A stretch of 64,000 nt of DNA from the NCBI GenBank assembly GCA_043228905.1, contig JBHGNT010000014.1:8432001-8496000 (forward strand). Reading direction: 5' to 3'. The position numbers were made by a program, and so were the translations under genes. The notes under the pieces were generated by a model. The model did no database searches, was not told where the DNA came from, and saw nothing but the letters and a program-made list of their open reading frames with translations. Shown here one piece after another: positions 1,026 to 64,000 of this stretch. How positions within the stretch are numbered: the first letter of the stretch is position 1; every line of letters begins with the position of its first letter. Source of the DNA: Azolla caroliniana. Taxonomy: Eukaryota > Plantae > Polypodiophyta.

Positions 1026-1471
1026 TGTCATGATATGGCAAAACTCGAACCCATGACCTTATGGTATATGGGTCGAGCTCTTAACCATCACACCATCTAT
1101 TGTAATTCATAGGATATTATTTTCATTTATGCTTTATTATAAGAAAGTAATGTATATTCCAGATTTCTCTGGAACATTCTAGAAGTTTTAGGATTACTCT
1201 TGAGAACACTATAAAAGAAGGCACTAGGCATTATGTTGAACCAAATTGGTTCAACGCCAGTCTTAAGCCTCTTAGCCACTTTGTACTTATCTTTCACATA
1301 ATATATTAGCTGCTGTCATCATCTTTCTCTCTCTCTCATTCTCGCTATCTCTTTCTCTCTCCTCTTCTCACTTCCTCTCTCGGGAATCTTACGCAGTCCC
1401 GTCCTCTTAGTACTAATAGTACTTCTCTTCTGTAGTACTAATTCTCTCTCAGTTTAGTACTATTCCTGACA
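1026..1471 (+). repeat. 5' LTR of element A
   Basis: Direct repeat of 6270-6707, TG...CA termini, TATAAAA at 1210-1216. Confidence 0.96.
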
Positions 1472-1543
1472 GTTTGAACCAATTTTTTCCTTCCTCAAGT
1501 CTACTTGTCATTTTCCCTCCTCCTCCTATCCTTTTTCTATACT

Positions 1544-2701
1544 ATGGCTACTATTAGCGCCCAAGAATATCAATCCGTTTTCTTTGAGCTACAGTGTCTA
1601 AAAGAAAAGTTTGTTGCCCTGGAACAAGAAAACCAATGGTTGATAGGGGATCTGCAACAAATCGTTCTAGAAAAACAACAAATGCAACAACAACATGGGG
1701 AGTTAGCGTTATGGGCACAACAACTCGAAGCAACGTTGCAACAACAAGGATCAAGTCCCCAAGGATTTCATAAAGAGCCCAAGATTGGACTTCATGTGAA
1801 ATTTGAGAGAACGCGATCGCAATTCCGGGGATTCCTTAATCAGGTACGCTTAGTCATCTAGATGCATCCTTCCCGATATCCCATTGATGCATCTCGAGTC
1901 GGCCTAATAGGCACATTACTTAGTGGCTCAGCCTTGGCATGGTTCGCTCCGCTTCTAGAAAAACAATCGCCCTTGCTTAATAACTTTGAAGATTTTATTG
2001 GTGAGTTTAAAGCCTGCTTTGGAGATACCGACAGCATCAAGACGACGATCAACAAGATCCGAAGATTGCGTCAAGGCGATCGTCCAGCCTTTGCCTACGC
2101 TGCGGATTTCCGTCTACTCGCCTCAGATATCCCCTGGGATGATCAGGCCCTCATGGAGCAATTTTGCTACGGCTTGCGCAACGATGTCAAAGACTTGCTT
2201 TTAACCTTCCTCGAAGAACCAAAGTCTCTTACGGAGGCAATCATTCGAGTGGTCCGATGCGACAACTGCCTTTTCGAACGACGTTCGGAACGTCAGTTAC
2301 AAATACCACGCTCTCGGCCGGAACCCACATATGCCTTAGTCACGGCTAAACCGTTTGCACGCGATGTACCTCAAGCCAATATTCCGACACCGATGGAGAT
2401 TGACACCATGCGTCAACGCGGCCCATTATCGGAAGAAGAAAAGCAACGACGACGTGCCAATCGATTATGTCTTTATTGCGGTGGACTAGGGCATATCGCC
2501 ATCAATTGTCCCCATAGGCCAAGAAGACAGGTAAATCAAATCATCGCTTGTACTAAACCCGAGTCAATTCTTCCTTTCAGAGTGTTTGATAGTATTAATA
2601 GTACTAATAGAGTGTCAGATAGTATTCATTGTACTACTAGCCCAAGTATCTCAAACAAATTTGAAATCCTTAGTCAATTAGATGAAGAGTTAAACGATTG
2701 A
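1544..2701 (+). pseudogene. gag: gag of element A (coiled coil, capsid, CCHC knuckle); in-frame TAG at 1859-1861
   Basis: ORFs 1505-1861 and 1862-2701 are in the same frame. Motifs LLSGSALAWF, PTPMEID and CLYCGGLGHIAINC. Confidence 0.9.
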
Positions 2702-2733
2702 GTCCAGCCAAAATAGGAGCCGTTTGGTTGGAC
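2689..2733 (+). promoter_or_regulatory. Putative -1 ribosomal frameshift signal (G_UUA_AAC plus 11-bp stem-loop)
   Basis: pol is in the -1 frame. The overlap is bounded by TGA 2683-85 and TGA 2699-2701. Stem 2702-2712 pairs with 2723-2733. Confidence 0.7.
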
Positions 2734-5700
2734 AACAACCCTAGATCTGTACAACCCATTAGTGGTTCCATTCCTTCCAAGCAAGTTAGCAATGTGTTCC
2801 TAGCCCAAGTCATTGTTAGTACTAAATGTACTCCCCCAGTACCTGTCCTAGCACTTTTAGATTCCGGAGCTAATTCTTGTTTCATGGATCGAAATTTTGC
2901 CCAAGCTTCTCAGATATCCTTAAGAAAACTTCCTTGTCCCGCATCTGTAGTAGTCATTGATGGTCGTCCCATTGCTTCCGGGAATATTGTAGAAGAATCA
3001 GAACCCATTCAAGTTGTCCTAGGTAGTTTTGTGTGTGTAGTATCATTTAATATAATTAGTAGTCCAGAGCATCCCATTGTCCTAGGATTACCTTGGTTTG
3101 AATTACATAATCCAGCCATAGATTGGAGAACAAGAGAAGTCCGATATCGACCACCCCAAGAATCTACTCACCGAGTTTCGACCATTTCACTCCATCAATT
3201 ATGTGAAGAAGGACACAAGGAGGCAATGTTCCTATTTGCAATATCAGTACATCCTTCCAACACTATTAAGAAGGACTCCTCAATACAACTTCCAGTAAAA
3301 TATCATCCTTATGCCGATGTATTTGACAAGGTAAAATCCGGTACCCTTCCTCATCACCGTCCCTATGACTGTCCCATCGATTTACAACCAGGAACCGAGC
3401 CACCATGGGGACGAATTTACAACTTGTCACCCACCGAGTTAGAAGTCCTTCGAGCCTACATAGAGGAGAACTTGGCAAGCGGGTTCATCCGTCATTCGAA
3501 ATCTCCGGCCGGTGCACCCATCTTCTTTGTCAAGAAGAAAGATGGCTCACTTGGTCTCGTCGTTGATTACCGCGGATTGAATAAGGTCACCATCCGGAAT
3601 AGGTATGCACTTCCTCTTTTATCAAGTCTTTTAGAGCGAGTTAATGGTGCCAAGTTTTTTACCAAAATCGATCTACGAGGAGCGTATAACCTTGTGCGGA
3701 TCTGACCGGGAGATGAATGGAAGACCGCCTTTCGCACGCGGTATGGGCATTTTGAGTATACTGTTATGCTATTCGGCCTAACCAACTTCCAACACATGGC
3801 AAATGATATATTGAGAGACCTCTTGGATATCTGTTTAATCATCTATCTGGATGATCTATTGATTTATTCGAAGACCCAAGAAGAGCACGATTCTCATGTA
3901 CTATTAGTGCTAAAGCGACTCCGCGAGAATGGTCTTTATGCCAAGCTAGAAAAATGTAGCTTTGACTGCAAGCAAATGGAATTTCTAGGCTACGTCATCT
4001 CCTCAAAGGGCATCGCCATGGATCCAACAAAAGTCCAAACAGTACTAGAGTGGCAAATTCCACGATCGGTACGAGATGTACAATGTTTTCTAGGTTTTGC
4101 GAACTTCTACCGTAAGTTTATACAGGATTACTTGAAGATTATTTTACCTCTCACACAACTTATGAAGAAGGGACAAACATTTCTTTGGTCCAATGAAGCA
4201 AATATGGCTTTTCGGCATCTTAAGAAAGCCTTTACATTAGCACCGATTCTAGCTCATGTGGATACAAGCAAACCATTCATCATGGAGGCTGACGCATCAG
4301 ATTTCGCCCTCGGTAGCATCCTTTCTCAACAAGGAGATAAAGAAGAGTTACATCTTGTGGCTTTCCATTCGCGCAAATTCGATGTCGCAGAAATCAACTA
4401 CGAAATACATGACAAGGAGTTATTAGCCATCGTGGATTCATTTGTGCAATGGCGGCATTTCTTAGAGGGCTCTCCACATCAGGTCATTGTCTTTAGTGAT
4501 CATAAAAATCTTGCTTATTTCCAGAACGCTCGCGTACTAAATCGACGGTAAGCTCGGTGGGCGCAATTCCTCACGCGTTTCGACTTCAAAATCACATATT
4601 GACCGGGGAAGTAGCAAGGAAAAGCAGATGCACTATCATGACGTTCATATCTTGCACCTCGTCCAGGTGATCCAACATTTGATAATCAAAAGCAAGTAAT
4701 CTTGGGACCAACACGATTGCACACGACGCGGATTTTTCACACCCCGATGGATTCACGGATTACCGATGACATACGTGCAAACTTGAAGACAGATAGTTTT
4801 GCTAAAGACATCCTGGTGCACATTGATACTTCTCGGGCATCCTGTTCTCAGTCTCAACAACCAGGTATTGACTACCGACAATTCGAATATCATGATGGTT
4901 TGTTATTCTTTAAAAAGCGCGTATATGTCCCCGATTGCTCCTGTCTCCTTCAAATCGTCCAGAATTGTCATGACACCCATACGGTGGGACATTTCGGTAG
5001 TACTAAGACGTTGGAGCTAGTGCAACAATCTTTTTGGTGGCCCCACATGCGCCGTTTTGTCGACGACTACGTTCGGACCTGTGATGCTTGCTGCCGAGCA
5101 AAGATGCCACCACACCATTCATATGTCTTGTTGGAACCCTTACCGATTCCAAGTAAGCCGTGGCAGTCTATTTGTCTTGATTTCTTCACAGATCTACCGA
5201 TCTCGAAGGGGTTCGATGCTATCTTAACCGTCGTCGATTGATATACGACGATGGCACATTTTGTGCCGTGTACTAAGGCCATCACTAGCGAGGAAACCGC
5301 CGCCCTTGTCATGCGTGAGGTATTTCGGCATCATGGCCTCCTAGACAGTATCATCAGTGACCGAGGACCGCAATTTGTGTCCAAATTTTGGCAGCATCTC
5401 TTCAAGATGCTCAAGGTCTCTTGCAACCTCTCCTCCGGCTACCATCCTCAGACCGATGGGCAAGCAGAACGAACAAACCAAACGCTGGAGCAATATCTCC
5501 GGTGTTTCCTGAGTTATCAACAGGACGATTGGGCCGAGATTCTCCACTTTTGCGGAGTTTGCGTATAATAATGTTGTTCACTCCTCGACTCGAGTCTCCC
5601 CATTCTACGCTTATACCGGTTCTCATCCTCGCTGGTCAGTGATCGACACCCCGGAGCTACCTACCAATCCTCGTGCCGGGGATCATTTGGAGAGACTACG

Positions 5701-6230
5701 CAAGATCCAGACAAATCTCTCAACTCATCTTCGTTATGCTCAACAGACACAGAAGACTTATGCGGATCGTCATTGGCTTCCCTCCTCTTTTGCCATCGGA
5801 GATCAAGTATGGCTCTTACGTCGTCACATCAAGACTACTTGACCATGCGACAAGTTGGATTATCGACGACTCGGCCCTTTCCATATTACCGGTAAGGTTA
5901 ATGATGTCACGTTCTGCCTTGATCTTCCTCCACATCTTCGGATACATCTAGTCTTCCATTGTTCTTTTCTAGAACCTTATAAAGCAAACACTATTCCCGA
6001 TAGTGTTACACCGCCGCCGCCGTTGCTTGAGTTTGACGCCGGCCCGGAGTATGAAGTTGCTGCCATCCTCGACTCCAAATTTATTCGCAACAAACTTTAC
6101 TATTTGGTCGATTGGCTCGGCTATAGTCCGAGCGAACGTACTTCGGAGCCCGTCGAGTATGTCGCCAATGCTTAGGATCTTCTTGCTGATTTTTAGCGAT
6201 AATATCCTGACAAACCCGGTCCTCAATCAG
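2689..6230 (+). pseudogene. pol: pol of element A (PR-RT-RNaseH-INT-chromodomain), multiple stops and frameshifts
   Basis: LLDSGA, YLDD, MEADASD, ISDRGPQF, HPQTDGQAER, and chromodomain EYEVAAILDSK...YYLVDWLGY. Confidence 0.93.
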
Positions 6231-6269
6231 CGTCGACTCGTTCCACTCGTCGTCTTAAGGGGGGGATAG

Positions 6270-6707
6270 TGTCATGATATGACAAGACTCGAACCCATGA
6301 CCTTATGGTATATGGGTCCAGCTCTTAACCATCACACCATCTATTGTAATTCATATTTTCATTTATGTTTTATTATAAGAAAGTAATGTATATTCCAGAT
6401 TTCTCTGGAACATTTTAAAGGTTTTAGGATTACTCCTGAGAACACTATAAGAGAAGGCACTAGGCATTATGTTGAAACAAATTGGTTCAACGCCAATCTT
6501 AAGCCTCTTAGCCACTTTGTACTTATCTTTCACATAATATATTAGCTACTGTCATCATCTTTCTCTCTCTCTCGTTCTCGCTATCTCTTTCTCTCTCCTC
6601 TTCTCACTTCCTCTCTCGGGAATCTTATGTAGTCTCGTCCTCTTAGTACTAAATGTACTTCTCTTCTGTAGTACTAATTCTCTCTCTGTTTAGTACTATT
6701 CCTGACA
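6270..6707 (+). repeat. 3' LTR of element A
   Basis: Follows the PPT AAGGGGGGGATAG. Repeat of 1026-1471. Confidence 0.96.
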
Positions 6708-9700
6708 AGGACACGCTCACGCACGAAGTGGTAATGGCAACGGTAGTGCCCCGGTATTTAGCCTCTGTGCTCGAAAGGGCCACTGTTGGCTGCTTTTTGC
6801 TCTTCCACGCAACAGCCGCGCTACCAAGGGAAAACATATAGCCTGAGGTGGATTGACGATCTGATGCATTGCCGGCCCAGTCGGCATCAGTGTAGCCGAC
6901 TAGCTCTTCGGTTATACCATGCCGGTATCACAGTCCTCGATCCCTCGTGCCGCTCACATATCTCAAAATTCGATGCGCGCATAGAAGGTGCTCCACGGTC
7001 GGCTTCTGCATATATTGGTTGATCACGCCAACCGGATAACTGATGTCGGGTCAGGTGATTGTCAAATATATAAGGCTTCCGATGATTTGTCGGAACCGCT
7101 TCTCATCGCAGACCGGTCCTGAGTCGGGACGGAGCTTCTGGTTCCGGTCCAAGGGTGTGGAGATCGGTCGGCATTCTGTCATGCTGAACTTGTACAACAT
7201 ATTCAACACATAGTGTCTTTGTGAGAGCAATATGCCTTCGGGGGTTTGGATCACCTCGATCCCAAGGAAATAGTGAAGGTCCCCCAGGTCCTTCATCTCA
7301 AATGTGTCCAATAGCTGGGACTTGACTAGACTAATTTCATCGAGTCCGGGTCTGGTGATGGCTAGGTCATCAACATACATCAAGATGCAAACCAAACCGT
7401 TTGGACCTTGCCGGATGAACAACGAAGAGTTGGACTTGGCGGACACAAACCCAATCTTACGCAACCGGTGCATGATCTTCACATTCCAAGTTCGGGGGGG
7501 CTTGCTTCAGGCCATAAAGTGACTTCTTCAGTCGGCATACCACCGACTTGTTCATCTCCGTCTGGAAACCGGGGGGTTAGGTCATAAAGACCTCTTCTTC
7601 AAGATCGCCTTGAAGAAATGCATTCTTCACGTCCATCTGGTGAAGATGCCACCCCCTTGCTGCAACAACCGCCAACACCACACAAACCGTCGTCATCTTC
7701 GTTACCGGAGCTAAGGTCTCGTCATAGTCGATTCTGTGGGTCTGCGCGTATCCCTTTGCCACTAACCGGGCTTTTTACTGGTTAATTGAACCGTCGACAT
7801 TGTACTTTACCTTGTACACCCACTTACATCTGATCGGTTTATAGTGTCGGGGAGGGTCAACTAGGTCCCATGTGTCGTTGGCATCAAGTACCTGCATTTC
7901 TTCCTCCATAGCGGCATGCCAATTTGCGTCCTTTGCCGCTTCTGCGTAGCTCTCCGGCTCACGCACTTCCGCCACCTTGGTCATCTATGCACAATGATGC
8001 GCCATGTACTCATTGTACCCGTACCGCTTCATGGGGTTCTTCTGGCGGGAAGACCCGCATATCTTATCATTACCCGGTTTGAGGCCCTTCTTGGCCGGTT
8101 CGGGCTTTGTTCCCGAAGATCCGCCTTAATCCTTTCCGGAGTCGGATTCGCTTCGATCCATCTCAACGTTGCCGGTTTCGTATTCCGGCATCTTGTTCTT
8201 CCCCTTCTCTTTGCGTGTGAACCGTCTCCTCGGTTCCTTGCGCGGGGAGAGCACGGCAGAGTCTCCACTACTCACCGATTCCTCATTCGACTGGTCATCC
8301 CAACTCAGCCGCTTGTTTGGCCTGCTCAATCGAAATGATTCCGGACTCACATCTAGAGTCTCAAACCGTTCGTCTTCTAACTGGACCGGTTCAGGCTCAC
8401 TAGCCTCATTCTCTGGTATCGGGTCGGGGTCGGAAGTCGGAGCCGGTAAAGCATACCATGATGCCGTCTCATCAAACTCAACATCCCGCCTAACTCGGAC
8501 CTGTTTCGTCCAGGGGTTATAACACTTATAACCCTTTTGCTCATGCGAGTAACCGACCAGGATGCATTTCTCCGACTTTGCATCCAACTTCCTCTGCTTC
8601 TCATCCGCCACATGCACATATGCAATGCTACCGAATATTCGAAGGTGTCGCAAATTTGGCTTGCGCCCAAAATATAGCTCATGCGCGGACACCTTGTCAC
8701 CGATCCGGTTTTGGATATAGAAGGCCGTCTAGACCGCCTCAGCCTAGTAGAATTTGGGCATGCTCTTCTCCTCTAGCATCGCCCTTGCTACGTCGATAAG
8801 CGATCGGTTCCTCCTCTCGGCCACACCGTTTTGCTCCGGTGTGTATCTGCAGTTGAACTCTCTCCGAATTCCTTTTTGAATTGATCGGAAAAATATTCTT
8901 TTCCGCCATCCGACCGCAGGCACTTGATATTCCTCTCCGTTTCCCGTTCAACCAGGCTTTGCAGGTTCTGGAAACACTCGAAGGCTTCGCTCTTCCACTC
9001 AATGAAGTAGATCCATGTGTGCCGGCTGTAGTCATCAATGAAGGAGATGAAGTATCGCCTCCCGCCAAGACTCACGTTTTGTGCTAGTCCCCATACATCC
9101 GAATGAATAAGGTTGAGCTTGTTACGACCACAATTACGTTCGGTGGGGAATGGAAGCCGGTGTTGCTTCCCGAGTTGGTAGGCTTCACATATTTGGGCCT
9201 TCTGGCCACTGAACTTCGACAAACCGAAAACAACTTGTTTCGTTTGTAGGTCTTGAAACCTCCGGTAATTGATGTGGCCGATCCGTTTGTGCCAGAGATC
9301 AATATCCGATTCAATCTTCTGTCCTTTGGCGAACAAAGCGGTGTCGACGTCATTGGTGTCGAGGATGAACATCCTCCCATCCTTGTGCAATAATTTGGCC
9401 CTCTTCCTCGATGAAGCACCCGAGGTGCGTAAACCGCACCTGCATTCCCTAGTCGACAATCTGTCCAATCGAGACCAGGTTCTTCATGATAATCGGAATG
9501 TGTAATACGCTCATCAGCTTCCCCCTCTGTCTGACGTGGCAGAAAGGAACTTCTCCGACATGCACGATTGGGTGAGGAGTGTCGTCTCCGGTTTTGACAA
9601 CTCTCGGTTGTTCCGGTTTTTCCAGGAAAGAGAACCACTCTTTGTGGCTCGTCATGTGATTCGAGGCACCGGAGTCAACGTACCATAGTTCCTTCGATTT

Positions 9701-10703
9701 GGAAATGGTCTTCTTCATCGAGTTAGCTTTGTGTTTCATCACCAAGGCTGGCCCTTTACTAGCTTTCCCGGTTTTGGATCCTCCCGATCCTTTTGTGTAG
9801 TGCGAGTATTGCCGGTTCTCTTTGATGGCCTTGCCGGATCCGGATTTGTCCGAATTGGCACACTTCTTCCAGCACTCGCTTTCTTTGTGGCCCTTTTTAC
9901 CACAGTACCAGCATTTCGTGTCGGCCTTTGCTTGCCGGTCTCCGGCACTGCCTTGAATCCCCCTGCTTGTGGAGGGTTCGGAACTGTTGTCGGCACGCTA
10001 CCATTGCGAGCGAACCCGCCTCGTCCACCATGCCCACGGGGCCGATCTGCCTTCGTGTACAAAATCCGGCTATCGGTGGGTGCACTTGTTGACGCACCGG
10101 TGTGGTTCTCCTCTACAAGGAGCATCAACTGTAAGTCGAAAAATGACAGCGTATGCTCCCTTGTACATACCGCCGTTCGGAACGCTCTGAACTTAGATCT
10201 GCACCATCTAATCTTCCTCCATGGTGACGTTGATAGAGGCAAGTGAGTCACAGATCTCTTTGATTCGGGTCGTGTAATCGGCTACTGACATGTCCTTCTG
10301 TCGGACATTGCTCAATTCCTATCGGAGTTGTAGCTTCTGGGCCGTAGTGCTTGCCACGAAAACCTTCTTTTGGCATCTTGGCATCTTGGACATGGCTCAG
10401 CAGCTGGTCTCCGACACTGGACGCAAAGCAGTACATCGCTCTGCTTGCCGCTTGTTCCCACACTCGGAAGTCCTTGTGTGCCGCATTAGGTGCTGTGTCA
10501 TTAGCTCCATTGACATATCTCCAGTAACCATGCCCAAGCAGGTACTGGTGCATCTTGTAAGACCAAGATGCGTAGTTGGATCTGTTGAGCTTCTCCACCG
10601 AAAGTGAGCTAGCCATTGCTCTGTCCATTTTGTTTTTCCTGTTCTTTACGAAGGTTAGGTTTTCTTCTTGAGCTAAGGTCGGTTGCAGAGGTTCTCAACC
10701 CTC

Positions 10704-10717: not shown

Positions 10718-11084
10718 TATAGAAACAAATAGTGTGCGGAAGAAATAGAAAACCGAACACAGAAACGCAGGTTTAGTGGAGAGCTTGACAATACGCGGGA
10801 GAGACAGAGAAAGAGTAGAACAAGTTAAATCTATTTCAAAACAATAATGGTTCTCTGTACATAAAACATGCTCAACAACACTATTTATACAAGTCCTAAG
10901 AGGACTGACAGAAGTATTGTGTACTTCAATGCTCATATGAGCGTCTGACACTAACTATGAGATAGTAACTACCTAGTAGTCTAGGCTGCTACTAGGCTTT
11001 CGGTTATTGCTGGATTCGGCTAATTGGCTCCCCAGCTCAGGCTTATTCAGCCAATCCGGATCCGGTTGAGCTTGTCGCTCAACA
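10718..11084 (-). repeat. 5' LTR of copia B
   Basis: Starts TGTTGAGCG on the minus strand. Similar to the J LTRs (AGTAGTAGCCTAGACTAC block). Confidence 0.85.
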
Positions 11085-11632
11085 CAAGATTTGAACCTTG
11101 TACCTCCATGTTAACGATTTTAAGGCTTACCATTGTACTAGCATATTATGAGTTTTTAAAGTTATACTAAACTTTATCCCATGTAAATATTCTAGATAAG
11201 CATGATAGAAAAGGTTATTCATGCATACACACTTGAGTTAAAAGAAAAGATGTGATAGAAAGCTAATCATGCACATGTAGTGTGTATGAAAACTAAAGTT
11301 AGAAAAAGCATGATGTTTGCAGGTGATAAACTTAGACTCTTCCATTACTATATAAGGGAGAGAGAAAGATGTATAGAGGTTGTTGATTTTTTATTATAAG
11401 GGTTGATTAATACAAAATATTCGTGGGGCTTCACGATTTTGCCATCTAATTCTCTCTTACAATCTAAGTATGAATTAATACATTATACTCATGGGATTCA
11501 CGAGTTTCATATCTCCATCTTGCAATCTATTCGTAACAAAACTTATCTCATATTCTTCTTCTTCAAGTCCAAAACCTCAGCGGTTCCCACCCGATTCATG
11601 CAACGATCCGGCGCCGAAAGGCACGACACAAA

Positions 11633-11650
11633 TGGCGAACTCGACGTGAA
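11633..11650 (+). promoter_or_regulatory. PBS complementary to the tRNA-Trp 3' end (2 mismatches)
   Basis: TGGCGAACTCGACGTGAA, compared with TGGTGAACCCGACGTGAA in element G. Confidence 0.75.
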
Positions 11651-17777: not shown

Positions 17778-18427
17778 TGTCGTAGTGTATTTCGTACACT
17801 ACGTGAAAAACATATATAGTATTCGATTAAATAAATATGAAGAAATAGAAGAAAATGTTAAAATAGGTGATACATGCATAGGGCAAGATTTGAACCTTGT
17901 ACCTCCATGTTAACGATTTTAAGCCTTACTATTGTACTAGTATATTATGAGTTTTTAAAGTTATGCTAAACTTTATCCCATGTAAATATTCTAGATAAGC
18001 ATGATAGAAAAAGTTATCCATGCATACACACTCGAGTTAAAAGCAAAGATGTGATAGAAAGCTAATCATGCACATGTAGTGTGCATGAAAACTAAAGTTA
18101 GAAAAAGCATGATGTTTGCAGGTGATAAACTTAGAATCTTCCATTACTATATAAGGGAGAGAGAAAGATGTATAGAGGTTGTTGATTTTTTATTATAAGG
18201 GTTGATTAATACAAAATATTCGTGGGGATTCACGATTTTGCCATCTAATTCTCTCTTACAATCTAAGTATCAATTAATACATTATACTCGTGGGATTCAC
18301 GAGTTTCATATCTCCATCTTGCAATCTATTCGTAACAAAATTTATCTCATATTCTTCTTCTCCTAGTCCAAAACCTCAGTGGTTCCCACCTGACTCACGC
18401 AACGATCTGGCGCCGAAAGGCACGACA
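17778..18427 (+). repeat. 3' LTR of element C
   Basis: TGTCGT...ACGACA, located after the PPT GGAGGGGGCGAA. Confidence 0.93.
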
Positions 18428-21400
18428 ACGTGATACGTGTGAAAGTGAGTAGTGACTCTCGATGTTCAAGAACTTTACCAATGAATGTAGCAATCGAGAG
18501 TGCACATTGTGGTTGTGAGAGGAATTCATGCAAGGATTGGGCTCGGTCGAAGAGATGTGGAAAGCATGGTCGAATATGATCAAAGGCAGAACATTGTATC
18601 AAAGTGTGATACTCAGACTCGCGAACTTGTTTAGGGCAAAGTGTGCATAGCCGACCACTCTCATCACTTGTGCCCCAACGCCTTGTCTCACATCGCAATG
18701 CATGTGAGCTAAGTCGCATGCAAGCAATGGTTCGAATGGCAGATAACGGTATGGGCTCTAACATGTATTGATGTGTACAGTTTCCCCGTTCCGCAAAGAA
18801 TATGGTTTTGTAGTTAGGTGCAACATGTGTAGTATAATGTGTAAAGCATGAGCCTCCACATTTGTCCCATGTCATGATACATTGGCATTGCAAAAAGGCC
18901 TCATTTACAGAGGAATCTAATGATGCATCATGAAGCAAGTGTCTGGCATCCCATCTAGCAAACCATTTTTCTATATCTTGCATCCAACTGGAACACAAAA
19001 TTTTGCTTTTATGCGTCTTTTGGATCTTTTTGCTTGCTTCCCATGCAATTCTAGGAAGTCAATGTGAGGGAATTTTTTGAACCTTAAGCATGTATTCAAC
19101 AACCCTTTCTGTGGCCATGATCTCAATGGGAAGCGATCCCGTCTCAAGGAAGAGGAGGGTGTAGGGCGTTTGTTTCTTAACTTGTAGAAACTTTGTCAGA
19201 AAATATTTTTGGACATTTTCAAACTCTTTCCACATAGATTTAGGGATGCTACCGCTCCATACTTCCACCCCATAGAGAAGAACCTGTGTCAGCAAAGTGT
19301 CGAAAATATATTTCTTGAGGACCCAACACTTAATATCTCCAAGATTGCATGTGTTCTCAAATGCATAGTATGCTCGCTTACCCACCTCTAAGCGGCGTGT
19401 AGGACATTCATTCCATATATGATTAGAAGGAACTTCAAGGCCAAGATATTTGAAGCTTTCCACACATTCAAGTGCTCATTGTTGTACGTAATGCATGGTT
19501 TATCTCTTTTTTGGCTCTTCACAAGAATAATCTTTGTTTTAGAGCTATTGACACTTAATTTAGTATGCATGCAAATTTTTTCCAATGCTTTCATAAGCTT
19601 TTGTGCATCTCCTAAATTATTTGCAAAAAGCACTACATCATCTGCATATAGTAAAAGCATAATAACAACATTCCGAATGACAACTTCTTCAACACATTCT
19701 TCCTTTGCAAACTTAGTAACCATTTCTTCCAATTCATCAATGCATAGACCAAATAGTGTTGGTGAGAGTGGGCATCCTTGCTTAACACCAATAGTACTTT
19801 TGAAAAAATCTGAAAGTTTTTCTCTCATGCGCATACAACATATAACCTTCTCATAAATTCGGGAAATTGCAAGCATATATTCACTTGGCACCTCAAGTTC
19901 TTCCATTCGCCTCCAAAGATGCTCACGAGCTACCATATCAAAAGCTTTCTTGAAGTCTACAAAGGAACAATATAAACCTTCACCTCTAAGGCAACTTTCC
20001 TCCATTAATACTCGAAGGGTGACAAGGTGATCAATGGTGCTATGGTGACAAGCTTGTCCATAAGCTCTCTTACCATTTTTTTCAGCCCATGCACTTATCT
20101 TTGATTCCATTATACATCCAAACAATTTTTCCATTAATGAGACAACCATGATGGTTCAATAGTTGTTTACATTATTTATATCGCCACCTTTATGTAAAGG
20201 TTTGATCCAATTTGTAGTCTAATCGTACGACATACCATGTTGCAATGCATCATTAAACATATCTCTTATCCATACATGTGCTTCCTTTCCCATCCATTTG
20301 AGCATTTTAGCCTTTATACATTGAAGATCGCTTGCCTTTCGAAAGGCCCATTTCTTAAGTCCTATGCATATATCTTCAATTGTAAAGAAGGGAGACATAT
20401 GTGAAAGAGAACTATAACATATCATCTTTCCGGCAAGAGATAACTCATATAAATTCTTACAATGCATAGACAAGTCGTGAAGAGTTAAGTCACCATAACT
20501 CTCAACACTTTTCCCCTTTAGATTTCCCCAAAATTTGTCACATGCATGTGCTTTCTCTTGCATTTGGATAAATTGTTGAGTAACTTCCCATATTCTTCTC
20601 TTTCTTTGAATAAGCCTTTTATACTCATGCAAATGCTTTTGGTAATTCTCTTTATCCTTAACTACATCCAAAACCATAAGGCACTTTCGAGCTTCATGAC
20701 ATTCTTTATCAAACCAGTTTTTCCTAAGTTTCTTGAGGCATTTCCAAGATGTGCGGTTGGTCGAAAAACATTTGTTTGTACAGGAGAGAATGACTTTCTT
20801 GAAAGCTTCCCATTTACATTCTGGTGTGGCACCATGTTGTATCTTTGTCATTTGTAACATATCCTCAACCATCTTGGAATACATGGGCGCTCGCTTAAGG
20901 TTCATGGTCAAGTGCGGTTGTTTATTATCTTCAATAGACATCTCACAATCAAACCTATGCATACATTTGAGATCAATACATAAAGGTCTATTATCGGATT
21001 TTGGTGTCCAGTCACCAAGTGAGAATTTATGTATACGATCCAAAATACCTTTGGAAAGTAGCACATACTCAATCACACTATTTCCGTTGTGTTTTCTACA
21101 TGTAAAAGCATTAGTGTTGGGCCATAAGGAAATACCATTTGCAATAAGCAATCTGGTACTATTGCACATTTGTAGGAGTAACTTCCCAAATTGGTCTGGA
21201 TCTTTTTCATCGCAAGAAGAGCGGCTATACATTTGCATATCCTCTTGCATCCTTGAGATATGTGGCATGAAAGATTCTTGTGAATCAAGTTGGAAACTTC
21301 TTGTATGAGCATTCATGTCACCAAAGATAATAACTTCCCCTTTGGATTTGAAATAAGCAATATCATCTTCTAGATTGGCGAAAGGTTGATCTTTATCCAA

Positions 21401-21784
21401 ACAAGCATAAAAGTTAGAATCTTGATGAGCAATGTAACATCCAACTACAAAAGTGGGCAAATCATTAGGTGTTTCTATTTTGAGCCATATGTAGCATTTA
21501 TGTTCATCATTTTTTATGATTGACACATATTTCTCTATTTCCTTCTTAATCAAACATGCCACCCCTCCTTGTCCTCTTCTTTGTCTTGGATTTTTCTTCC
21601 ATATCAAAGAGTGTACATTATACTTTCATAAACCTTGAATCCTTTGAGTATCATGCTCCCATGTTTCAACAAGAAGTGTGATATCCGAGTCATCGGTGAA
21701 CTCCTCTATGCCAAATCCCGCATTCCATGGGTATCCATTGCAATTCCAAAAAGCATAGTCGTAAAAGGCGTGGGTTAGTCTCAT
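18428..21784 (-). pseudogene. LINE ORF2 (APE endonuclease, RT, Zn-finger tail)
   Basis: The ATG at 21784 is in frame with ORF 20219-21607. Motifs FWNCNG, LVETW, FGDMNA, FVDFKKAFD, GVKQGCPLSP, LLYADD, FKYLG and RLSSHALRCE..RLC..C..E.EYH...C. Confidence 0.9.
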
Positions 21785-33747: not shown

Positions 33748-36700
33748 ATATGTAGGGAGTGATTATATCGACGATGTCGATCTCGAACAATGGAATGATT
33801 AACAATATGTAGGGAGTTGATAATGGAGCGTAATAATCTAAAAGATATAATAGATAGTTCCATGAAAATGCCTGAACAAGAACCTAGGATGAGCATGTGG
33901 AAAAGCAGAGACCTCGATGCCAGAATGGAAATAATTATGCACTTAAGTGAGAAGCAAGTCAATTATGTTCAAAACTTACACACAACAAATGAAATGTGGG
34001 AGTATTTGCAAAACATTCATCAACCATCTGATGGGACAACTAATTTTTTATCATTCAGATAATTAATGAATTTACAAATGAAAGAAGGTGAACAAATCGA
34101 CACATTTATCATGAAGTGGCAAAAGCAATTAGATACAACCATCTCTTCAGGCAATAATATTGATGAAACTTCCAAATGTGAGATTTTAATGGGAGCGCTA
34201 CCAGAATCATGGATGACTTTTGTAAGTATTCATAGTGAAGACAAAAATTTAAATTTACAAAATTTAGTAGCAAAGTTAAAGTAGGATGAACTATGAAGGA
34301 AAAGAACAAGTTCACAACATGAGGCTAGCCACATGACAATGACAACCTCAATTAGAAATAATCGAGGCAACTTTGCGAAGCAGAAAATTCAACGGTTTCC
34401 AAACAACCAAAAGTTTCAACAGAAGAACAAATCAAATGGAATGGGAGGCTTGACGATATCTACAATCACATGTAGGTATTGTTATAAACAAGGTCATATT
34501 GAAAAAGATTGTAGAAAGAAGCAATTTGATCTTAAAAGGATAGGAAAGAAGTCTTATCCTCAAATTCATAGTGCATCAATTCAAAATGATAATGTGAACT
34601 ATTGTGAAGAAGATGAAGACAATAATTTTATACAAGCTTTTACAAGTGATGCAAATGAACGTCAAGTGAATCAAAAGAAAGGCAATACAACCTTTGGTTC
34701 TTTGTTACTAGTAAGAATATACGGGGAGGCATAAGGGTAGGTGTAATGATGTGGTTGATGCGTATGTGTAAAGTAAATGAGTGTGTGAGGATGAGTATGT
34801 GTATGGACACATGCACAATTATGTGCATGTGTACAAGAATGCGTAATGGTCTTATTTATAACGGTCATGTAACCATTACATTGAATGTATTATATAAACC
34901 CCTTATGGGCATGTAATGAATATACATTTTCCCCTCTCATTTTTTGTGTCATTTTGTATTTTCACTTTCCTTCGCCCTCTCTATTGTAATCCCCTTGGGA
35001 GGGGAGTGAGGCTTCACCCCCCACCCCATCAACACTTTTGGCACGCCCGAATGGCCGACCTCCCTTGAGAAGACGTCACTCTCTCCCTCCCTCAGTCTCC
35101 CTGTCCGAAGACGATAATATAATCTATCTATCTATCTATCTCCATCATTAATCTCTATATCTCCCTCTCTATTTGTATGTTAATGTTTGTGTTGTGGTTT
35201 TGGTCTTAGATTCTTTGTATGGTGATTTGTTTTTATTAAAGGTTCTTGGTGTGCGTTGGGATCTGGAGATTTAGTAAGATGGGTATCTTGTTGCTCTTCC
35301 CCCTATCTCCTATGTGTTGTGATCTGACATTCTTCTTCTCTCCCAATCGAGCTGCACTTTGATTTCGAGGAACACATCTGACCTCGTCATGCCTCCTCAC
35401 CATCGAGATGGCCGATGTCCGGCAGAGGGCCGGAAATACACGGCCAATGGGCCGGCCGAAAAGAGATATCCGGCAGACAACGGATGGAGCCAACATGCCA
35501 ATGGAGACGGTTACGGACAGAGCCGGTCGCCGGACAACGATGACCGACGGACAACTGGTTAGACCGCCGATAGATGGCTAGACGGTGGCTGGACAGAATG
35601 GCAAATGCATAGAAGGTCACCAAGAGAAGACAGTCACAGAGAAGGAAAAGAGGAAGATGTAGAAGCAAGGAAGAGGAAAAAGAAGTATCTGAACAAAAAC
35701 GGAGATAGAAGCTCGGAAGGCTCTACAAAAAAGCTGAGAGAGAAGAAAATTTGAAGAAATAGAAGGGCATTCCACAAAATTTCAGAAATGTAAGGGCAGA
35801 GAGGAAAATTTCAATAATTTGAGGGCATACCATCAAATTTCAGATTCTCGAGTGCAGAAGAGAAAATTTCGAAAACTCAAGGGTCGAAAATAAAAAAACA
35901 AAAGTGGTAAAAACTAGAATTAAAAAAAATAAGTGGTACAAATCATGAAATTTCGAAAACACAACTCACATGATGAAAGAAAGAATACACAAACGCACAA
36001 CACGATTTCACGCCCCATGCCACATTGAACTGGCCGATTGGTGTATGATCCAATCGCGACTTATGCTGACCGAACGAGAAGGTTCAAGTCAAGCAAAGCT
36101 CAGATAGAAGTTATCGATCGTAGAGTAGTGATCTGGTTGAGGGATTTCTGAACATTGAGACAACTAATGGAGTTCTGGTCGAGAAGAGTTGCCATGGCAT
36201 GTGGGTTCACTATGCAACGCATTGTCCCACAAGTGTGCCATGTGTTACCCGTAAGAATATATGGGGAGGTATAAGAGTAGGTGTAATGATGTGGTTGATG
36301 TGTATGTGTAAAGTAAATGAGTGTGTGAGGATGAGTGTGTGTATGAACACCTGCACAATTATGTGCATGTGTACAAGAATGTGTAACGGTCTTATTTATA
36401 ACGGTCATGTAACCGTTACATTGGATGTATTATATAAACCCCTTATGGGCATGTAATGAATATACTTTTTCCCCTCCCATTTTGTATTTTCACTTTCCTT
36501 TGCTCTCTCTATTGTAATCCCCTATTCTAGGCTTCACCCCCACCCCAATTAACATTCTTCGACACTGGCAAGCTTAACAAATAACAAAAAATTTCTACAT
36601 AACTAATGCCCCCTTCCACAAGCACTCCAAGTTACATTAGGTGATCATGGCACACAAGTCGCGATTGGCAAAGGGGAAGTACACTTGTCTCTAAAAAAAT

Positions 36701-38100: not shown

Positions 38101-38463
38101 TGAAAGGTTTAGAAAAGGTACCTAACAAAAGAGGAAGTTGATGGGGAATGAAAAATCCTGAAAGAAGACAAAATGAAGAAGTCAAATTCATTCATTGATC
38201 CCCACATCAAGATCTATAATGAAGCCGCATGAATATGATCAAGTGCAGTAGCAACGTCACTATTCCCAACAAACTCCACATGAAAGGTTTAGAAAAGGTA
38301 CCTAACAAAAGAGGAAGTCGATGGGGAATGAAAAATCCTGAAAGAAGACAAAATGAAGAAGTCAAATTCATTCATTGATCCCCACATCAAGATCTATAAT
38401 GAAGCCACATGAATATGATCAAGCGCAGTAGCAACGTCACTATTCCCAACAAACTCCACATGA
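38101..38463. repeat. Two-copy 180-bp tandem duplication
   Basis: 38101-38280 and 38281-38460 are nearly identical. Confidence 0.95.
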
Positions 38464-40476
38464 TCGGCATGATCATCCTCCACAAATTCCAGTGGGAGGA
38501 GCCGACAGTTGAAGACAGAGAGCAGCTGACTGATTGGATAAGAGCCGATGGTTGAGGAGTCGACTCAGAGAGAGTTGATCGAGGTCGAAGACACGACTAG
38601 CTAGTCGGGCCGACTAGATGGTCGATGGCCAGGCCAACTAGTCGGACTGACCCGACAACCGACGAATGAGTCGGCTGATTAGTAAGACTATTATTATTAT
38701 TATTGGATAATAATAATGGATATGATTGTAAATAGCCCATTCTGTGTATTAGTATAAATACACCAAGGGAAAACAGAACATGGAGATATATGTTGGGAAA
38801 TCGGTCCCTCCGGATGGGATCTAATGATGAATGAAGAGGACCCGGTGAGAACCGAAAGAGATCCGGAAACTAGAGGAGACATGGTGAGAACCGGAAGAGA
38901 AGACATATCTGTAAATATGTTTTGAATAAGCCTATGGAGCCTATATTTGTAAATAGCCCTAAGTTCATATAAGTATAAATATGACTTAGGGCAATCACTA
39001 TAGTGGTTATTGTCATATTGTTGTAACTATTGTACAGTAAGCGAGCGAGAGAGAGAGAGAGTGTGTGTGTGTGTGAGTGAGATATAGACTGATACTCTGT
39101 TGTAACTGTCGGTTGGCGAAGATACAAAGCTCGAGGTCGTTGCCTCCGAGGCTCTGATTGTACCTTTCTCATATTGTGATAGTTTGGAGTTTGTGGGCTC
39201 CCGTGGTTTTTCCCTATTAGGGTTTTCCACGTAAACATCCTATGTATTTCCTTGTGTACTCTCCATTTCCCATTTTTGTGTTTCATTCTCTTTTGAAGTC
39301 ATTCAAGACTTGGTTGTGGCCGAGCTATATTCCGCGCCATTCTCAACAAACTGGTATCAGAGCGAACAACACAAGAAATGGAAGAATCGTTCGGCGGCAT
39401 GTTCAAGCTCACCGGTGTCATGAAGATTTTTGGCAATGGTGTGAAAATCAAATAAAACGTACAAAATCAACTGTCAATCATATAAAACAATAATAGTGAA
39501 TATACTAATTCTAAGTAAGTTTAATATCTTACTACAAAAGATGAAGATCTTGAAGAGATGCACTTTACTACATAAGAAACGGACATCTAAGTGTCAACTT
39601 ATGTGGGTAAGAAGTTGCGAAAGAAAAAGAGGAAATTGTGAAATATCTCACATAGACAGGACGAATAAGGCTCTCACCATATATAAGGTAGAGCAAAAGT
39701 TATTATCTTTGTGTCTATGTGTGGACCATAGAGAGTTCAAGGTAACTTGAACTAAGAGTGGAGGTGGCCTAGCCAGTCGTAAAGGTTTTGGCCAACCAAA
39801 ATGGAACTGGACGGTAACCGGTGATCGGCATCCGACTGAGCCGGCGAGGCGGCGGCGGAGCCGGTGATCCGGCAACCGGATAGATTTATAAATAAATAAA
39901 TAAATATATGTATACACATATACATATATATATACACAAGGGCAAGTGAGAACTCGAACCTTGCAAGTGAGTCAGTAGGCTTACCAGTAAGCCATGACAT
40001 TTAGTTGAATTTATATTCCTATCATTGTACTTTTACATATAAATTCTCATACATGAGAGCTAAAATGAGTGACATGGTTATCATGGACCACATGTAATAC
40101 ATGAGCGCCAAATGGCAAACATGCATTTTATGCATGTCTTGTACCCTCACATGCATCTTATGCATGAGAGCATCTATAAAAGAAGGGATGAAAAAGAAGA
40201 AGGGTTAGGCTATTTTGGTTATGAAATTAAGAAAAAGAAAATTCGTTATTGAATTGATCGTGTAACTTGTTTCTGAAATCTAAAGTCAAGAGTTCTTAAT
40301 CTCTCTCTCAATCTAAAATCAAGCGTTCTATCTTTTCTCAATCTCTCTCTCTTTCAATCTATCTTAATTCCTTTCTCTCTAAAGCTTGTCCCAACGTCGA
40401 ATCCTTCCGGTCCAAAACCCTGGCGGTTCCGCCTCACAATCCGTGCGCAATGATGAATCTTCACGACATAATTAAG

Positions 40477-40494
40477 TGGTGAACCCGACGTGAA
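40477..40494 (+). promoter_or_regulatory. PBS complementary to the 3' 18 nt of plant tRNA-Trp
   Basis: TGGTGAACCCGACGTGAA is the reverse complement of TTCACGTCGGGTTCACCA (tRNA-Trp 3' end as recalled, not looked up). Confidence 0.85.
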
Positions 40495-54800: not shown

Positions 54801-55882
54801 GAAATATTATGGATGAAGGACTTCATCGGAGAGCTCGATGTCCGGCAAGATGAATACCGGCTCTATTGTGATAGTCAAAGTGCCATCCATCTTGCTAAGA
54901 ATGCGGCCTACCATTCCCGGACGAAGCATATCTAGTGAAGATATGACTGGATCCGAGAAAGAGTAGATGACTAGGAGTTCGCACTGACAAAGATCCACAC
55001 GGCCGAGAACGGGTCAGATATGTTGACCAAAGTGCTGATACCCGACAAGCTTGATGCATGCCGGAAGAGAATCAGACTGGTAAGACACCCCATGCCGGAG
55101 TGAAGGGGGAGTTTGTTGGGAGACAGGTCCCTCCGGATGGGAAGGGAGAAGAACAATGCCGATGAACAAACTCGGCTACGGAGAGCCGGATGGTACAGAC
55201 CCGGTGAAGACCGGATGAGGAGTACCTGGCTACGGAGAGCCGGATGGTACAGACCCGGTGAGAACCGGATGAGGAGTACCTGGCTACGGAGAGCCGGATG
55301 GTACAGACCCGGTGAGAACCGGATGAGGAGTACTCGGTTACGGAGAGCCGGATGGTGTAGACCCGGTGAGAACCGGATGAGGAGTACTCGGCTACGGAGA
55401 GACGGATGGTGCAGACCCGTGAGAACGGGATGAAGAGACATATTCGTAAATATGTTTCTGAGAGTCCATCATGGCTATATTTGTAAATAGCCGAAAAGTC
55501 ATATTAGTATAAATATGACTTAGGGCAAACCTTTAGTTGTTGTTATTCTTGTCTACGCGAGACCAGAGTGCGTAACAGTGTACAGAGAGTGAGAGAGAGA
55601 TGAAGAGGTCGTTGCCTCTGATTGTAACCGCCGCTTGTGGCGAAGATCGTGAGCATGAGGTCGTTGCCTCCGTGAACTCACTGTTGTACATTCTAACATA
55701 GTCATAGTTTGCAGCCTGTGGGCTGTCGTGGTTTTTTCCCTAGTTTGGGTTTTCCACGTAAACATCTTGTGTACTCTTCTCCTCTCTTTTTTGTGTTGAA
55801 CATCTATTTCCCGTTTTTTGTGTATGATTCTAAGCTAGGTTGTGGCCGAGCGTTGCGTATAGGGAGCGTGCAGCTCCTGTCA
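51813..55882 (+). mobile_element. Ty1/copia K (F/I family), 5'-truncated, relatively intact pol
   Basis: WVVDSG, VHTDV, RADNGGEY, EQLDVKT, FTDSD, ALSTTEAEY. PPT at ~55102-55111 and LTR 55114-55882. Confidence 0.93.
55168..55435 (+). repeat. 54-bp tandem repeat (about 5 copies) in U3 of the K LTR
   Basis: Unit is approximately GGCTACGGAGAGCCGGATGGTACAGACCCGGTGAGAACCGGATGAGGAGTACCT. Confidence 0.95.
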
Positions 55883-56530: not shown

Positions 56531-57064
56531 TGTTGATTGTTATTTACACACCTTTCCTTCAAAATTGGTGTAAACTGACTCAAATAACTTGAGAGAGAGT
56601 AATATTTCACTAAATTCGTTTGGACATCACCTAAATCTACTAAGGCCATAATCTTGACATAAACCCATGACACATTTATGACTATGGAAGATGGCCTCAG
56701 TTTCTCTCGGACACAATACTGAATCTAAAAGACAACTCATGGAAGAGATAACATGCTCAGATGATTTACAGTGCTCATGTGGGCTCGATCGACAAATTGG
56801 GCACTCACAAGTGCAAACTGCATTTGTTAGGGAGGCGCTATGGTGATGTAGTAGATTAACAGAGTCCTTGAGAAAACCCATTTGTACATGGCAAATGCAA
56901 CAACATGTGTATTGATCATGTGGCTTAAGAGACTCAAATGGGTCTCACAAAGTGTGGCTTAAGAGACTCAAATGTTCGTAGTTGAACTTTGATATTTGGA
57001 TGCATTCGCCTGAACCTAATAAATATATCGACCTGCGTAATAAAATGGACATACTGATTAACTC

Positions 57065-57445
57065 TATGGCTAAGTGGTAGCTAATTAGCTACTACCATAG
57101 CTTAGTACAATAGCTAATTAGTTACTACCATAGTTTAATACATTAGCTAAGTGGCTAACTAGCTACTACCATACTTTAGCTAAGTAGCTAATTAGCTACT
57201 ACCATAGTTTAATTCAGTAACTAATTAGCTACCATTTAGCTAATTAGTTACTACCATAATTTAGTACACTAGCTAATTATCTAAGTGGTAGATAATTAGC
57301 TACTACCATAGTTTAGTACAGTAGTTCTCTTGTCTAAGTGGTAGCTAATTAGCTACTACCATAGTTTAGTATAGTAGCTAATTAGCTAAGTGGTAGCTAA
57401 TTAGCTACTACAATAGTTTAATACAATAGCTAGTTAGCTAAATGG
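57065..57445. repeat. Degenerate tandem array built on the palindrome TAGCTAATTAGCTA plus CTACCATAGTTTAGTA
   Basis: Roughly a dozen variants are visible. The array is cut on the right by the LTR of L. Confidence 0.9.
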
Positions 57446-57655
57446 TGTTGTCCATAGGCCAGAAATATAAATACAGAATATGTAAACTCGCCGGTAGGTA
57501 GAAAAGTAGGTGAGGAAATAGGTAGAACTAGAAATAGTCGAGTTTTAGCCCTCACAATCAGCTGATGGCTCGACTCTGTCTAAGGAAGAAAACTATATAA
57601 ACCGAGATCTGCATACCTCAGGAGGGGGAGAATATCTAGATTAATTTTAGCAAGA

Positions 57656-59990: not shown

Positions 59991-60569
59991 CCTTACCACG
60001 GGAATACCCTAGATAATCCCTTCGTTGAGTCTCACGGCACGGACCAGTTCACGGACAACGCCACGAAGGCGGCCACGTGTCCCCATCGGTAAAATACTGA
60101 CCTACCCACCAAATGTATATAGTAGGAATAGTTTTAGCAGTTAAATTAGCCTTACCTAAACTACCTAACAAATCACCCAAAATCACGACATTTTCTTAGC
60201 CGCACCAACTAGTCACCTTCACCTTAAAGTAGAATATTTAAGGAACATGCACACCGGACATAACACTCCTGTGACGCGTGGCCACAATACCTTATTATGG
60301 CAGCCACAACCAATAATTTAAAGGATCTTCTCCCTACACAAAACCCTAGGCAATCACATAAAAGATACTACCCCGCACACAACGCGCCCACTCACACAGA
60401 AGCGTTCTTGCCTTCACCGCCTTCAAGCTCCCAAGCTCTCTCTCATTTGCATCGCTCCTACAAACAGGCCTCCTCTCACCCTCATAGCCCCTGCACAGAA
60501 CAACGGTGTCCTCCCCAACCATCTTCTTCCAACTCTCTGTCGCGCCCTCGTGTCATCGCTCCCCCCCAT

Positions 60570-63500: not shown

Positions 63501-63633
63501 AGAGGTCGGCGCACGCGACGACACAGCCATCCCCGACTCGGTACCAAAACCTCCATCACCAACCCCACCTTCCGAGCAGCCAGACCAACCCCACGCCCTT
63601 GAGGATATCCTCGGCATATTAGAAGAGGATTAA
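60570..63633 (+). pseudogene. Extra ORF of L (about 1000 aa: globular N-domain, low-complexity linker, long coiled coil); start uncertain
   Basis: ORFs 60651-61190 and 61254-62084 share one frame, and 62110-62418 and 62578-63420 share another. They are separated by single TAG/TGA stops and one frameshift. Confidence 0.75.
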
Positions 63634-64000
63634 AACAAACCCATAAGCCCTTGTATAAACGGGCAACTTTTGTAAACTATTTTGTTTTTGCAAAATCTGT
63701 GGTTATCCCTCCAAATTGTGAACTGTGGGTCCGACGGACAAAGTCCTGTCCCACGGGCATGCCATGTGTTGTCCATAGGCTAGAAATATAAATACATAAT
63801 ATGTAAACTCGCCGGTAGGTAGAAAAGTAGGTGAGGAAATACGTAGAACTAGAAATAGTCAAGTTTTAGCCCTCACAATCAGCCGATGGCTCGGCTCTGT
63901 CTAAGGAAGAAAACTATATAAACCGAGATCTGCATACCTCAGGAGGGGGAGAATATCTAGATTATTTTTAGCAAGATTAATATCATAGCACTAAGCTCTG

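Follow-up and report, generated by a model that had tools for sequence, protein, structure and literature searches.

A selected antisense A/B-box cassette in the long terminal repeats of Tcn1-type and Phygy-like retrotransposons

TFIIIC recognises A and B boxes and positions TFIIIB upstream; in yeasts, tDNAs stop heterochromatin from spreading. The B-box consensus is GTTCRANNC, with an A-B distance of 30-60 bp (PMC5391098), and the S. pombe tDNA barrier requires TFIIIC and Pol III and is orientation-independent (PMC2040200). Among long terminal repeats (LTRs), those of the Helenus/TRIMp3 group, described with Cassandra and Ajax (Kojima 2024, PMC10886601), hold tRNA-derived sequence that is present in both LTRs, is conserved around boxes A and B and includes no functional tRNA. 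The available text of the same source mentions "not a few" Repbase LTRs with tRNA-like sequence, TRIMs alone being analysed there. Foamy-virus LTRs contain Pol III microRNA units with A and B boxes, nested in the Pol II unit of an autonomous element (PMC3993851), and the gypsy element Ty3 has tRNA-complementary sequence in U3 as part of a split primer-binding site (PBS) (PMC5371799). Two further lineages concern us here: the Tcn1 clade, which occurs in mosses and club-mosses and is predicted to be self-priming, and Phygy, which prefers NCGN insertion sites (PMC6317226).

Nested retrotransposons are piled up across the 64-kb window, the whole stretch of DNA that was analysed. Three of them, elements A, C and G, carry paired A and B boxes on the minus strand of U3, and the positions and sequences match those reported by an earlier, sequence-only reading of the window (Table 1). 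Element A is a Tcn1-type chromovirus by virtue of a chromodomain after the integrase (PF00385, E 3.6e-7) and a self-priming PBS, whose complement lies in the element's LTR. Within 190 nt, this LTR presents in order the cassette, an AT-rich tract, a heat-shock-like array and the TATA. Element C is Phygy-like by its NCGN insertion site, lack of a chromodomain and compact body, and NCGN-type flanks are found at other insertions of C as well, in 4/4 DNA runs. From the 66-73% identity of its pol to that of C, we infer that G is probably Phygy-like too. That A belongs to another lineage than C and G, as first proposed, agrees with blastn of pol, in which A has no match to either. The affinities of the three elements point to a non-seed plant as their host. 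The same reading had the cassettes repeated in the second LTR; they are present there in both A and C, but the copies are not exact. It also placed a TTTT about 20 nt beyond the cassette in the 3' LTR of C, where one lies 23 nt past the B box, and saw a D-arm-like hairpin in G, which is indeed predicted but not unusual (z -1.5). The three LTRs are otherwise dissimilar by blastn, as had been said, except that the U3 of C weakly aligns with some Tcn1 LTRs beyond the boxes.

Table 1. Features of elements A, C and G in the window, with the second cassette found in pol of related loci (positions of the last row are those of the loci named)
Feature	Position	Strand	Remarks
Element A, whole	1026-6707		gag-pol with chromodomain, target duplication, PBS complementary to own LTR
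Element A target duplication	1021-1025 and 6708-6712		5 bp
Element A 5' LTR	1026..1471	+	TG..CA ends; K2P 0.045 versus 3' LTR
Element A 5' LTR cassette	1041..1095	-	A box 1095-1085, B box 1051-1041 with C61 changed to T, gap 33
Element A 5' LTR cassette, tRNA positions 44-48	1059-1055	-
AT-rich tract 5' of A box	1096..1170	-	predicted TFIIIB seat
GAA/TTC array, element A LTR	1172..1184	+	taken by us, from its motif, to be heat-shock-element-like
Pol II TATA box of A	1209..1217	+	114 nt from T8, points away from cassette; putative function
LTR palindrome of A complementary to PBS	1236..1257	+	12-nt match to 1472-1488
Self-priming PBS of A	1472..1488	+
Broken gag-pol of A	1478..6254	+	protease, RT, RNase H, integrase, chromodomain (Pfam); stops and frameshift
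Element A 3' LTR	6270..6707	+	preceded by polypurine tract
Element A 3' LTR cassette	6285..6339	-	score 21.6, rank 2 in window
Element C 5' LTR	11085..11628	+	truncated at 11085 by copia insertion; 96% to 3' LTR
Element C 5' LTR cassette	11087..11140	-	gap 32; score 27.9, rank 1 in window
tRNA-type PBS of C	11633..11650	+	presumably Trp-like
Element C 3' LTR	17778..18427	+	Phygy-like; NCGN-type site adjoins
Element C 3' LTR cassette	17886..17939	-	G18 changed to A; score 19.3
Element G 5' LTR	39790..40468	+	probably Phygy-like; left end uncertain; no 3' LTR found in window
Element G 5' LTR cassette	39950..39994	-	gap 23; shortened by 9-10 nt, positions 44-48 lost; single copy
tRNA-type PBS of G	40477..40494	+	16/18 bases as in C
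Second cassette in pol	L031 ~2912-3020; L048 ~963 and ~6287; L053, L054, L055, L057		protease-RT linker

The window cassettes exceed chance. A strict pattern finds 16 B boxes in the window, five with an A box 20-45 nt upstream; four of these pairs are the LTR sites of A and C and one lies elsewhere (36081, plus strand), far above the 0.21 pairs expected from 100 local dinucleotide shuffles (maximum 2). Because the pattern must not be fitted to the finding, a two-box matrix was trained on tRNAs from unrelated viral loci (130 of the 140 distinct ones called there). Over both strands of the window, the C 5', A 3' and C 3' cassettes take ranks 1-3 and the A 5' cassette is fifth (14.6). The top score was reached in 0/40 shuffled windows and that of the A 3' cassette in 2/40. 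The G cassette scores 23.3 with relaxed spacing only, at which 0.07 such sites occur per shuffled window (15 shuffles). ARAGORN and Rfam call no tRNA at the cassettes. Nine other LTR stretches in the window score below 10 even with relaxed spacing and have no cassette, and the same holds for nine fungal-type chromovirus LTRs, which score below 9; a protein search found 10 fungal-type chromovirus loci in viral contigs. In viral contigs the cassette pattern occurs at 12 loci, 2 of them on called tRNAs.

The pile holds other features of note. Two more LTR elements (57445-63977 and 34703-36554) lack a cassette; in one of them, long additional ORFs that match no Pfam family accompany an RNase H/integrase of gypsy type. 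An AT-rich palindromic tandem repeat lies at 57025-57446, repeats of 54 nt occur at 55174-55443 and a 180-nt unit is duplicated in tandem at 38101-38460; LINE-type endonuclease and RT frames lie just beyond element C (19391-21625, minus strand). A copia element, with domains at 7054-10694 on the minus strand (Pfam), is inserted at 11084-11085, 2-3 nt beyond the B box of the 5' LTR of C; its other end was not found. RY-type motifs are present in the LTRs of C and G. In AT-rich sequence, the U3 of C (17885-17995) aligns over ~117 nt, from the B box through the AT tract, with the Tcn1 LTR of L042, one of the metagenome loci described below, and G (~40065-40165) has a motif block in common with another, L046. 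Exchange of LTR modules between the Tcn1 and Phygy lineages is possible on such alignments.

Contigs from four DNA runs (four organism codes) extend the window copies. Thousands of pieces align to the LTR of A, and among the 40 of 97 variants listed none falls within 1028-1063, although a listing of this kind can miss variants close to a stretch end. At 1089, where the window copies of A differ, 59-72% of contig depth shows the canonical A14; contig depth in these runs does not measure copy number. For C, contigs in X1 have G18 in 96% and G57 in 72% of depth (40 of 94 variants listed), and the B-box bins are among the deepest. Loose ends of divergent subfamilies on the A and C LTRs are still readable as A boxes. 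The Phygy evidence consists of the three window LTRs plus the contigs for C, G being a single copy with short spacing. Among the metagenome loci, a Phygy-like gag was seen in L090 only, weakly and without its LTR; the bacterial genomes searched for Phygy gag gave 0 loci, and the viral contigs searched with the RT of C and with two alignments gave no match.

Relatives of A were sought in metagenomes with nothing but the integrase end and chromodomain as query, which yielded 77 loci at 49-89% identity. An LTR start was usable in 60, forming 26 clusters at 75% identity whose representatives were picked blind to score. Of the other 17, 8 are truncated, 4 are rearranged or have no polypurine tract that could be recognised, and 5 belong to a separate clade in which no typical LTR start was found; on visual inspection, three of these 17 (L071, L096 and L090) have the cassette. 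A minus-strand cassette scores above the best of 520 shuffles in 52/60 loci and 19/26 clusters, and a plus-strand cassette in 1/60 loci, in samples that may stem from few studies. The expectation that paired boxes would exceed the rate in shuffled LTRs is therefore borne out. High- and low-coverage contigs pass at similar rates (33/37 and 19/23), and the 7/26 representatives that fail include the high-coverage L065 and L070. The G18-G52 spacing is 34 or 35 in 19/19 passing clusters; the distance from cassette to LTR end varies among them from 10 to 62 nt. In an integrase-end tree of 39 rows (midpoint root only), A falls in a group of 33 rows, none of whose branches is without scoring LTRs. A separate six-row clade has no clear cassette, the 500 nt after its chromodomain giving scores of -7 to 11 in the five rows of six that were scored, with LTR position unsure. 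Heat-shock-like arrays of at least 3 units lie between cassette and TATA in 9/19 clusters, which suggests that these LTR promoters may be stress-inducible. As side observations, the flank outside the Tcn1 element of L045 (~200-640) has several more A/B-box-like units, perhaps from a SINE-like source family, and tRNA-gene-like sequences occur near Tcn1 fragments in L052 (~605, plus; ~853, minus) and L028 (~178, plus).

Whether the boxes are more conserved than the flanking LTR had been set as a test beforehand, and they are. Across the 19 passing clusters, between-cluster identity is 0.82 for the A-box core and 0.76 for the B box, against 0.32-0.37 for the flanks, 0.36 for integrase four-fold sites (15 in frame) and 0.74 for codon position 2; the boxes resemble codon position 2 and the flanks resemble silent sites. 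Positions 44-48, not scored by the matrix, reach 0.75, and a matrix-blind MAFFT alignment brings out the same columns on top. With all 26 clusters included, identity compared with an anchoring null is 0.70/0.52 for the A box, 0.68/0.41 for the B box and 0.64/0.28 for positions 44-48. Among 44 distinct passing cassettes, the A box retains T8 in 42, A14 in 38, G18 in 41 and G19 in 41, and the B box retains G53 in 42, T55 in 44, C56 in 41, A58 in 43 and C61 in 35, its degeneracy tracking the consensus. The A-B gap lies within 30-60 bp in 19/19 clusters, as in A and C, with that of G below the range. G46 (42/44) and T47 (44/44) are nearly fixed and lie outside the known boxes. The antisense A/B cassette is real and under selection, and the original description holds: a divergent tRNA-derived module lies upstream of the Pol II TATA, is retained by two lineages and is far better conserved than its flanks.

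A second antisense A/B cassette was found inside pol. It is read in frame in 7/30 protease-RT linkers, as 4 distinct sequences of one well-supported sublineage, and proteins P0002, P0003 and P0008 have the same linker insert. It fixes a short residue run within an otherwise hypervariable linker. Element A has no such second cassette in pol.

Is the cassette selected as DNA or as RNA? Pairing in the acceptor, D, anticodon and T stems, compared with shuffled partners, is 0.41/0.36, 0.57/0.57, 0.41/0.36 and 0.64/0.62, whereas in 100 real tRNAs the same stems pair at 0.87-0.98. U33 is kept in 32% of cassettes and the 15:48 pair is mostly lost, unlike in the real tRNAs, and RNAalifold gives no consensus fold across cassettes. 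The cloverleaf was rejected as a conserved structure, no stem beating the null and a slide of +1 scoring equally. A T4 is found within the LTR in 8/19 clusters and absent in 11/19; from the cassette in the 3' LTR of A, the nearest T4 is 1369 nt away. That stems, anticodon loop and terminator are not conserved favours a role at the DNA level over an antisense RNA, and selection most likely acts on protein-binding DNA, the presumed TFIIIC sites. The plant Pol III upstream signature is TATA plus CAA (PMC3082873). Its conservation here was rejected, with CAA at -9..-1 in 2/19 and TATA in 7/19 clusters; only AT richness is kept upstream (80% AT in the 45 nt before T8, 19 clusters). Between the start region and the B box, T4 occurs in 0/19 clusters versus 5.6 expected (P 0.0003), a lack that hints at real read-through; A4 is also low there (3 versus 6.8 expected, P 0.04).

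We propose that a TFIIIC/TFIIIB platform on the DNA acts as a tDNA-like barrier at the outer LTR edge, and give this proposal about an even chance of being right. TFIIIC would bind the A and B boxes as DNA, TFIIIB would sit on the AT-rich tract between the cassette and the stress-element/TATA region, and any Pol III transcript would be a by-product. The benefit would be that the element's own Pol II promoter is kept open after insertion into silent, repeat-rich chromatin. At the outer end of U3, cassette and TATA stand with their backs to each other. In favour of the proposal we count the minus-strand bias, the constant spacing and box-only conservation across clusters, the unconserved cloverleaf and terminator, and the second cassette in pol. 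The chromodomain of A also counts in its favour, together with the related moss chromovirus RLG1, which fills heterochromatic islands and is still expressed (PMC7466625). Several observations count against a barrier. Orientation and spacing are fixed here and a barrier requires neither; other LTRs of the pile, gypsy and copia alike, do without a cassette; G46 and T47 are not explained by the known boxes; the internal T4 absence hints at read-through; the upstream CAA/TATA signature is unconserved; and 7/26 representatives fail. A barrier within pol would be harder to motivate, and a plant review, in its available text, cites tDNA barriers only for yeasts and animals (PMC9540200).

Fixed spacing, fixed orientation and G46/T47 would all be accounted for if the cassette were, like the microRNA units of foamy-virus LTRs, a working Pol III gene, with selection on a short antisense RNA whose hairpin pairs 24-36 with 48-61 and leaves bases 43-47 in the loop. 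Both cassettes of A in the window are predicted to fold stably (z -4.8 and -3.4); across 19 clusters the hairpin's paired cells amount to 64% versus 61% shuffled (10/500) and 30-46% slid, and 19 cells change on both sides versus 10.7 (4/500). Moreover, no internal T4 is present, and a T4 stands two bases beyond the B box in 3/19 clusters. However, the hairpin register was chosen after looking, and kinship inflates such tests. The mean folding z is only -1.2, several clusters have no hairpin, no consensus fold emerges, and C and G do not form the hairpin. There is no common 3' end, given the clusters whose LTR lacks T4, and silencing is what one would expect a long antisense RNA to promote. We consider a selected Pol III RNA unlikely, though worth keeping in mind.

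Selection could instead act on the sense genomic RNA, with U3 annealing to a host tRNA at its D and T loops, much as the primer tRNA of Ty3 is paired through its D and TPsiC arms with U3 (PMC5371799). Annealing would account for the antisense orientation, the U3 position, the tRNA register and the dispensable stems, and variation at 48-52, 57 and 60 is mostly by transitions, which wobble pairing allows. Yet A self-primes and therefore needs no tRNA primer, and by hand the C and G cassettes match 1/5 positions of the T-stem 5' strand implied by their PBS. G18, G19, G46, G53, T47, T54 and T55 almost never show a wobble-tolerated change, position 59 varies three ways, and the cassette copy in pol is distant from either RNA end. 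Such annealing is improbable. A Ty3-type split PBS was rejected, since U3 complementarity to the element's own primer tRNA fails in A, C and G.

We are similarly doubtful that TFIIIC binding serves positioning, by tethering copies to Pol III clusters or offering landing sites to other elements, and not shielding. A and B boxes without tRNA context do attract TRE5-A in Dictyostelium (PMC5391098), and the copia element sits just past the B box of C. That is one insertion only, 3' of the B box and not upstream as for Ty3 and TRE5-A, and a carrier would be harmed by attracting insertions. We find it scarcely credible that the cassette is a neutral remnant, left by a tRNA or SINE insertion and replicated with the LTR: the lack of a cloverleaf, loss of the cassette in some copies and the flank units of L045 as a SINE-like source would suit it, but flanks and four-fold sites are saturated and boxes are not, the cassette occurs in two lineages and as a second in-frame copy, and box-only conservation in the clusters, against the anchoring null and in the matrix-blind alignment contradicts it.

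Returning to the barrier, a fuller scenario can be drawn, which we hold tentatively and with somewhat less than even confidence: autonomous LTR elements of non-seed plants would have turned a tRNA promoter without stems into a portable chromatin insulator, already present in the ancestor of the sampled Tcn1 radiation, held in common with Phygy or transferred to it, and copied a second time into the pol frame. Were the insulator reading true, the cassette would be a cis-acting anti-silencing device drawn from the Pol III machinery and the first tDNA-type barrier in plants. It bears on the open question of how heterochromatin-seeking retrotransposons remain transcribable, plant chromatin barriers being poorly defined, and a 55-bp element with two known protein-binding boxes is open to single-base mutation tests. 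If the related dominant moss families carry the cassette, their genomes would hold thousands of TFIIIC sites, which would affect chromatin borders, the supply of Pol III factors and tRNA/SINE annotation. If the RNA reading were true instead, we would have the retrotransposon counterpart of retroviral Pol III small RNAs.

The host elements are of described kinds. A has its chromodomain and self-priming in common with Tcn1 (Neumann 2019, PMC6317226; Vendrell-Mir 2020, PMC7466625), and C has its missing chromodomain, compact body and NCGN site in common with Phygy (PMC6317226; Novikov 2012, PMC3350952). Neither for Tcn1 nor for Phygy LTRs is a tRNA-like or Pol III module mentioned in the available text of PMC6317226, PMC3350952 and PMC7466625, the last having 0 word-start matches to "tRNA". 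Searches of openly available full texts, together with text of PMC3350952 and PMC12786077, yielded no description of antisense A/B boxes in Tcn1 or Phygy LTRs; the Helenus and REXdb supplements may list such LTRs. The novelty appears to lie in purifying selection that acts across the clade on the boxes alone, within autonomous elements belonging to two lineages.

Each known system resembles the cassette in part. Ty3 pairs with its own primer tRNA (PMC5371799), whereas A self-primes and C and G mismatch the T stem implied by their PBS. Foamy-virus units form a hairpin with a basal terminator and make proven RNAs (PMC3993851); here hairpin and terminator are only partly kept. Helenus and its group come closest, having tRNA-derived A/B boxes in the LTR as here. 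Helenus elements are non-coding and 311-1263 bp long, in contrast to the present carriers of 5.7-7 kb with gag-pol and a Pol II TATA, and transcription of the element itself is the role proposed for their Pol III promoter, sense transcription being implied (PMC10886601), whereas our boxes face outward. Membership of the Helenus/TRIMp3 group was accordingly rejected on size, coding capacity and orientation (minus in 52/60 loci, plus in 1/60). The S. pombe cen1 tDNA barrier (PMC2040200) and ETC sites have in common with the cassette both A/B boxes as the likely working parts and the proposed function; those are host tRNA genes or solo B boxes at fixed borders, and the present unit is stem-less and travels on a mobile element.
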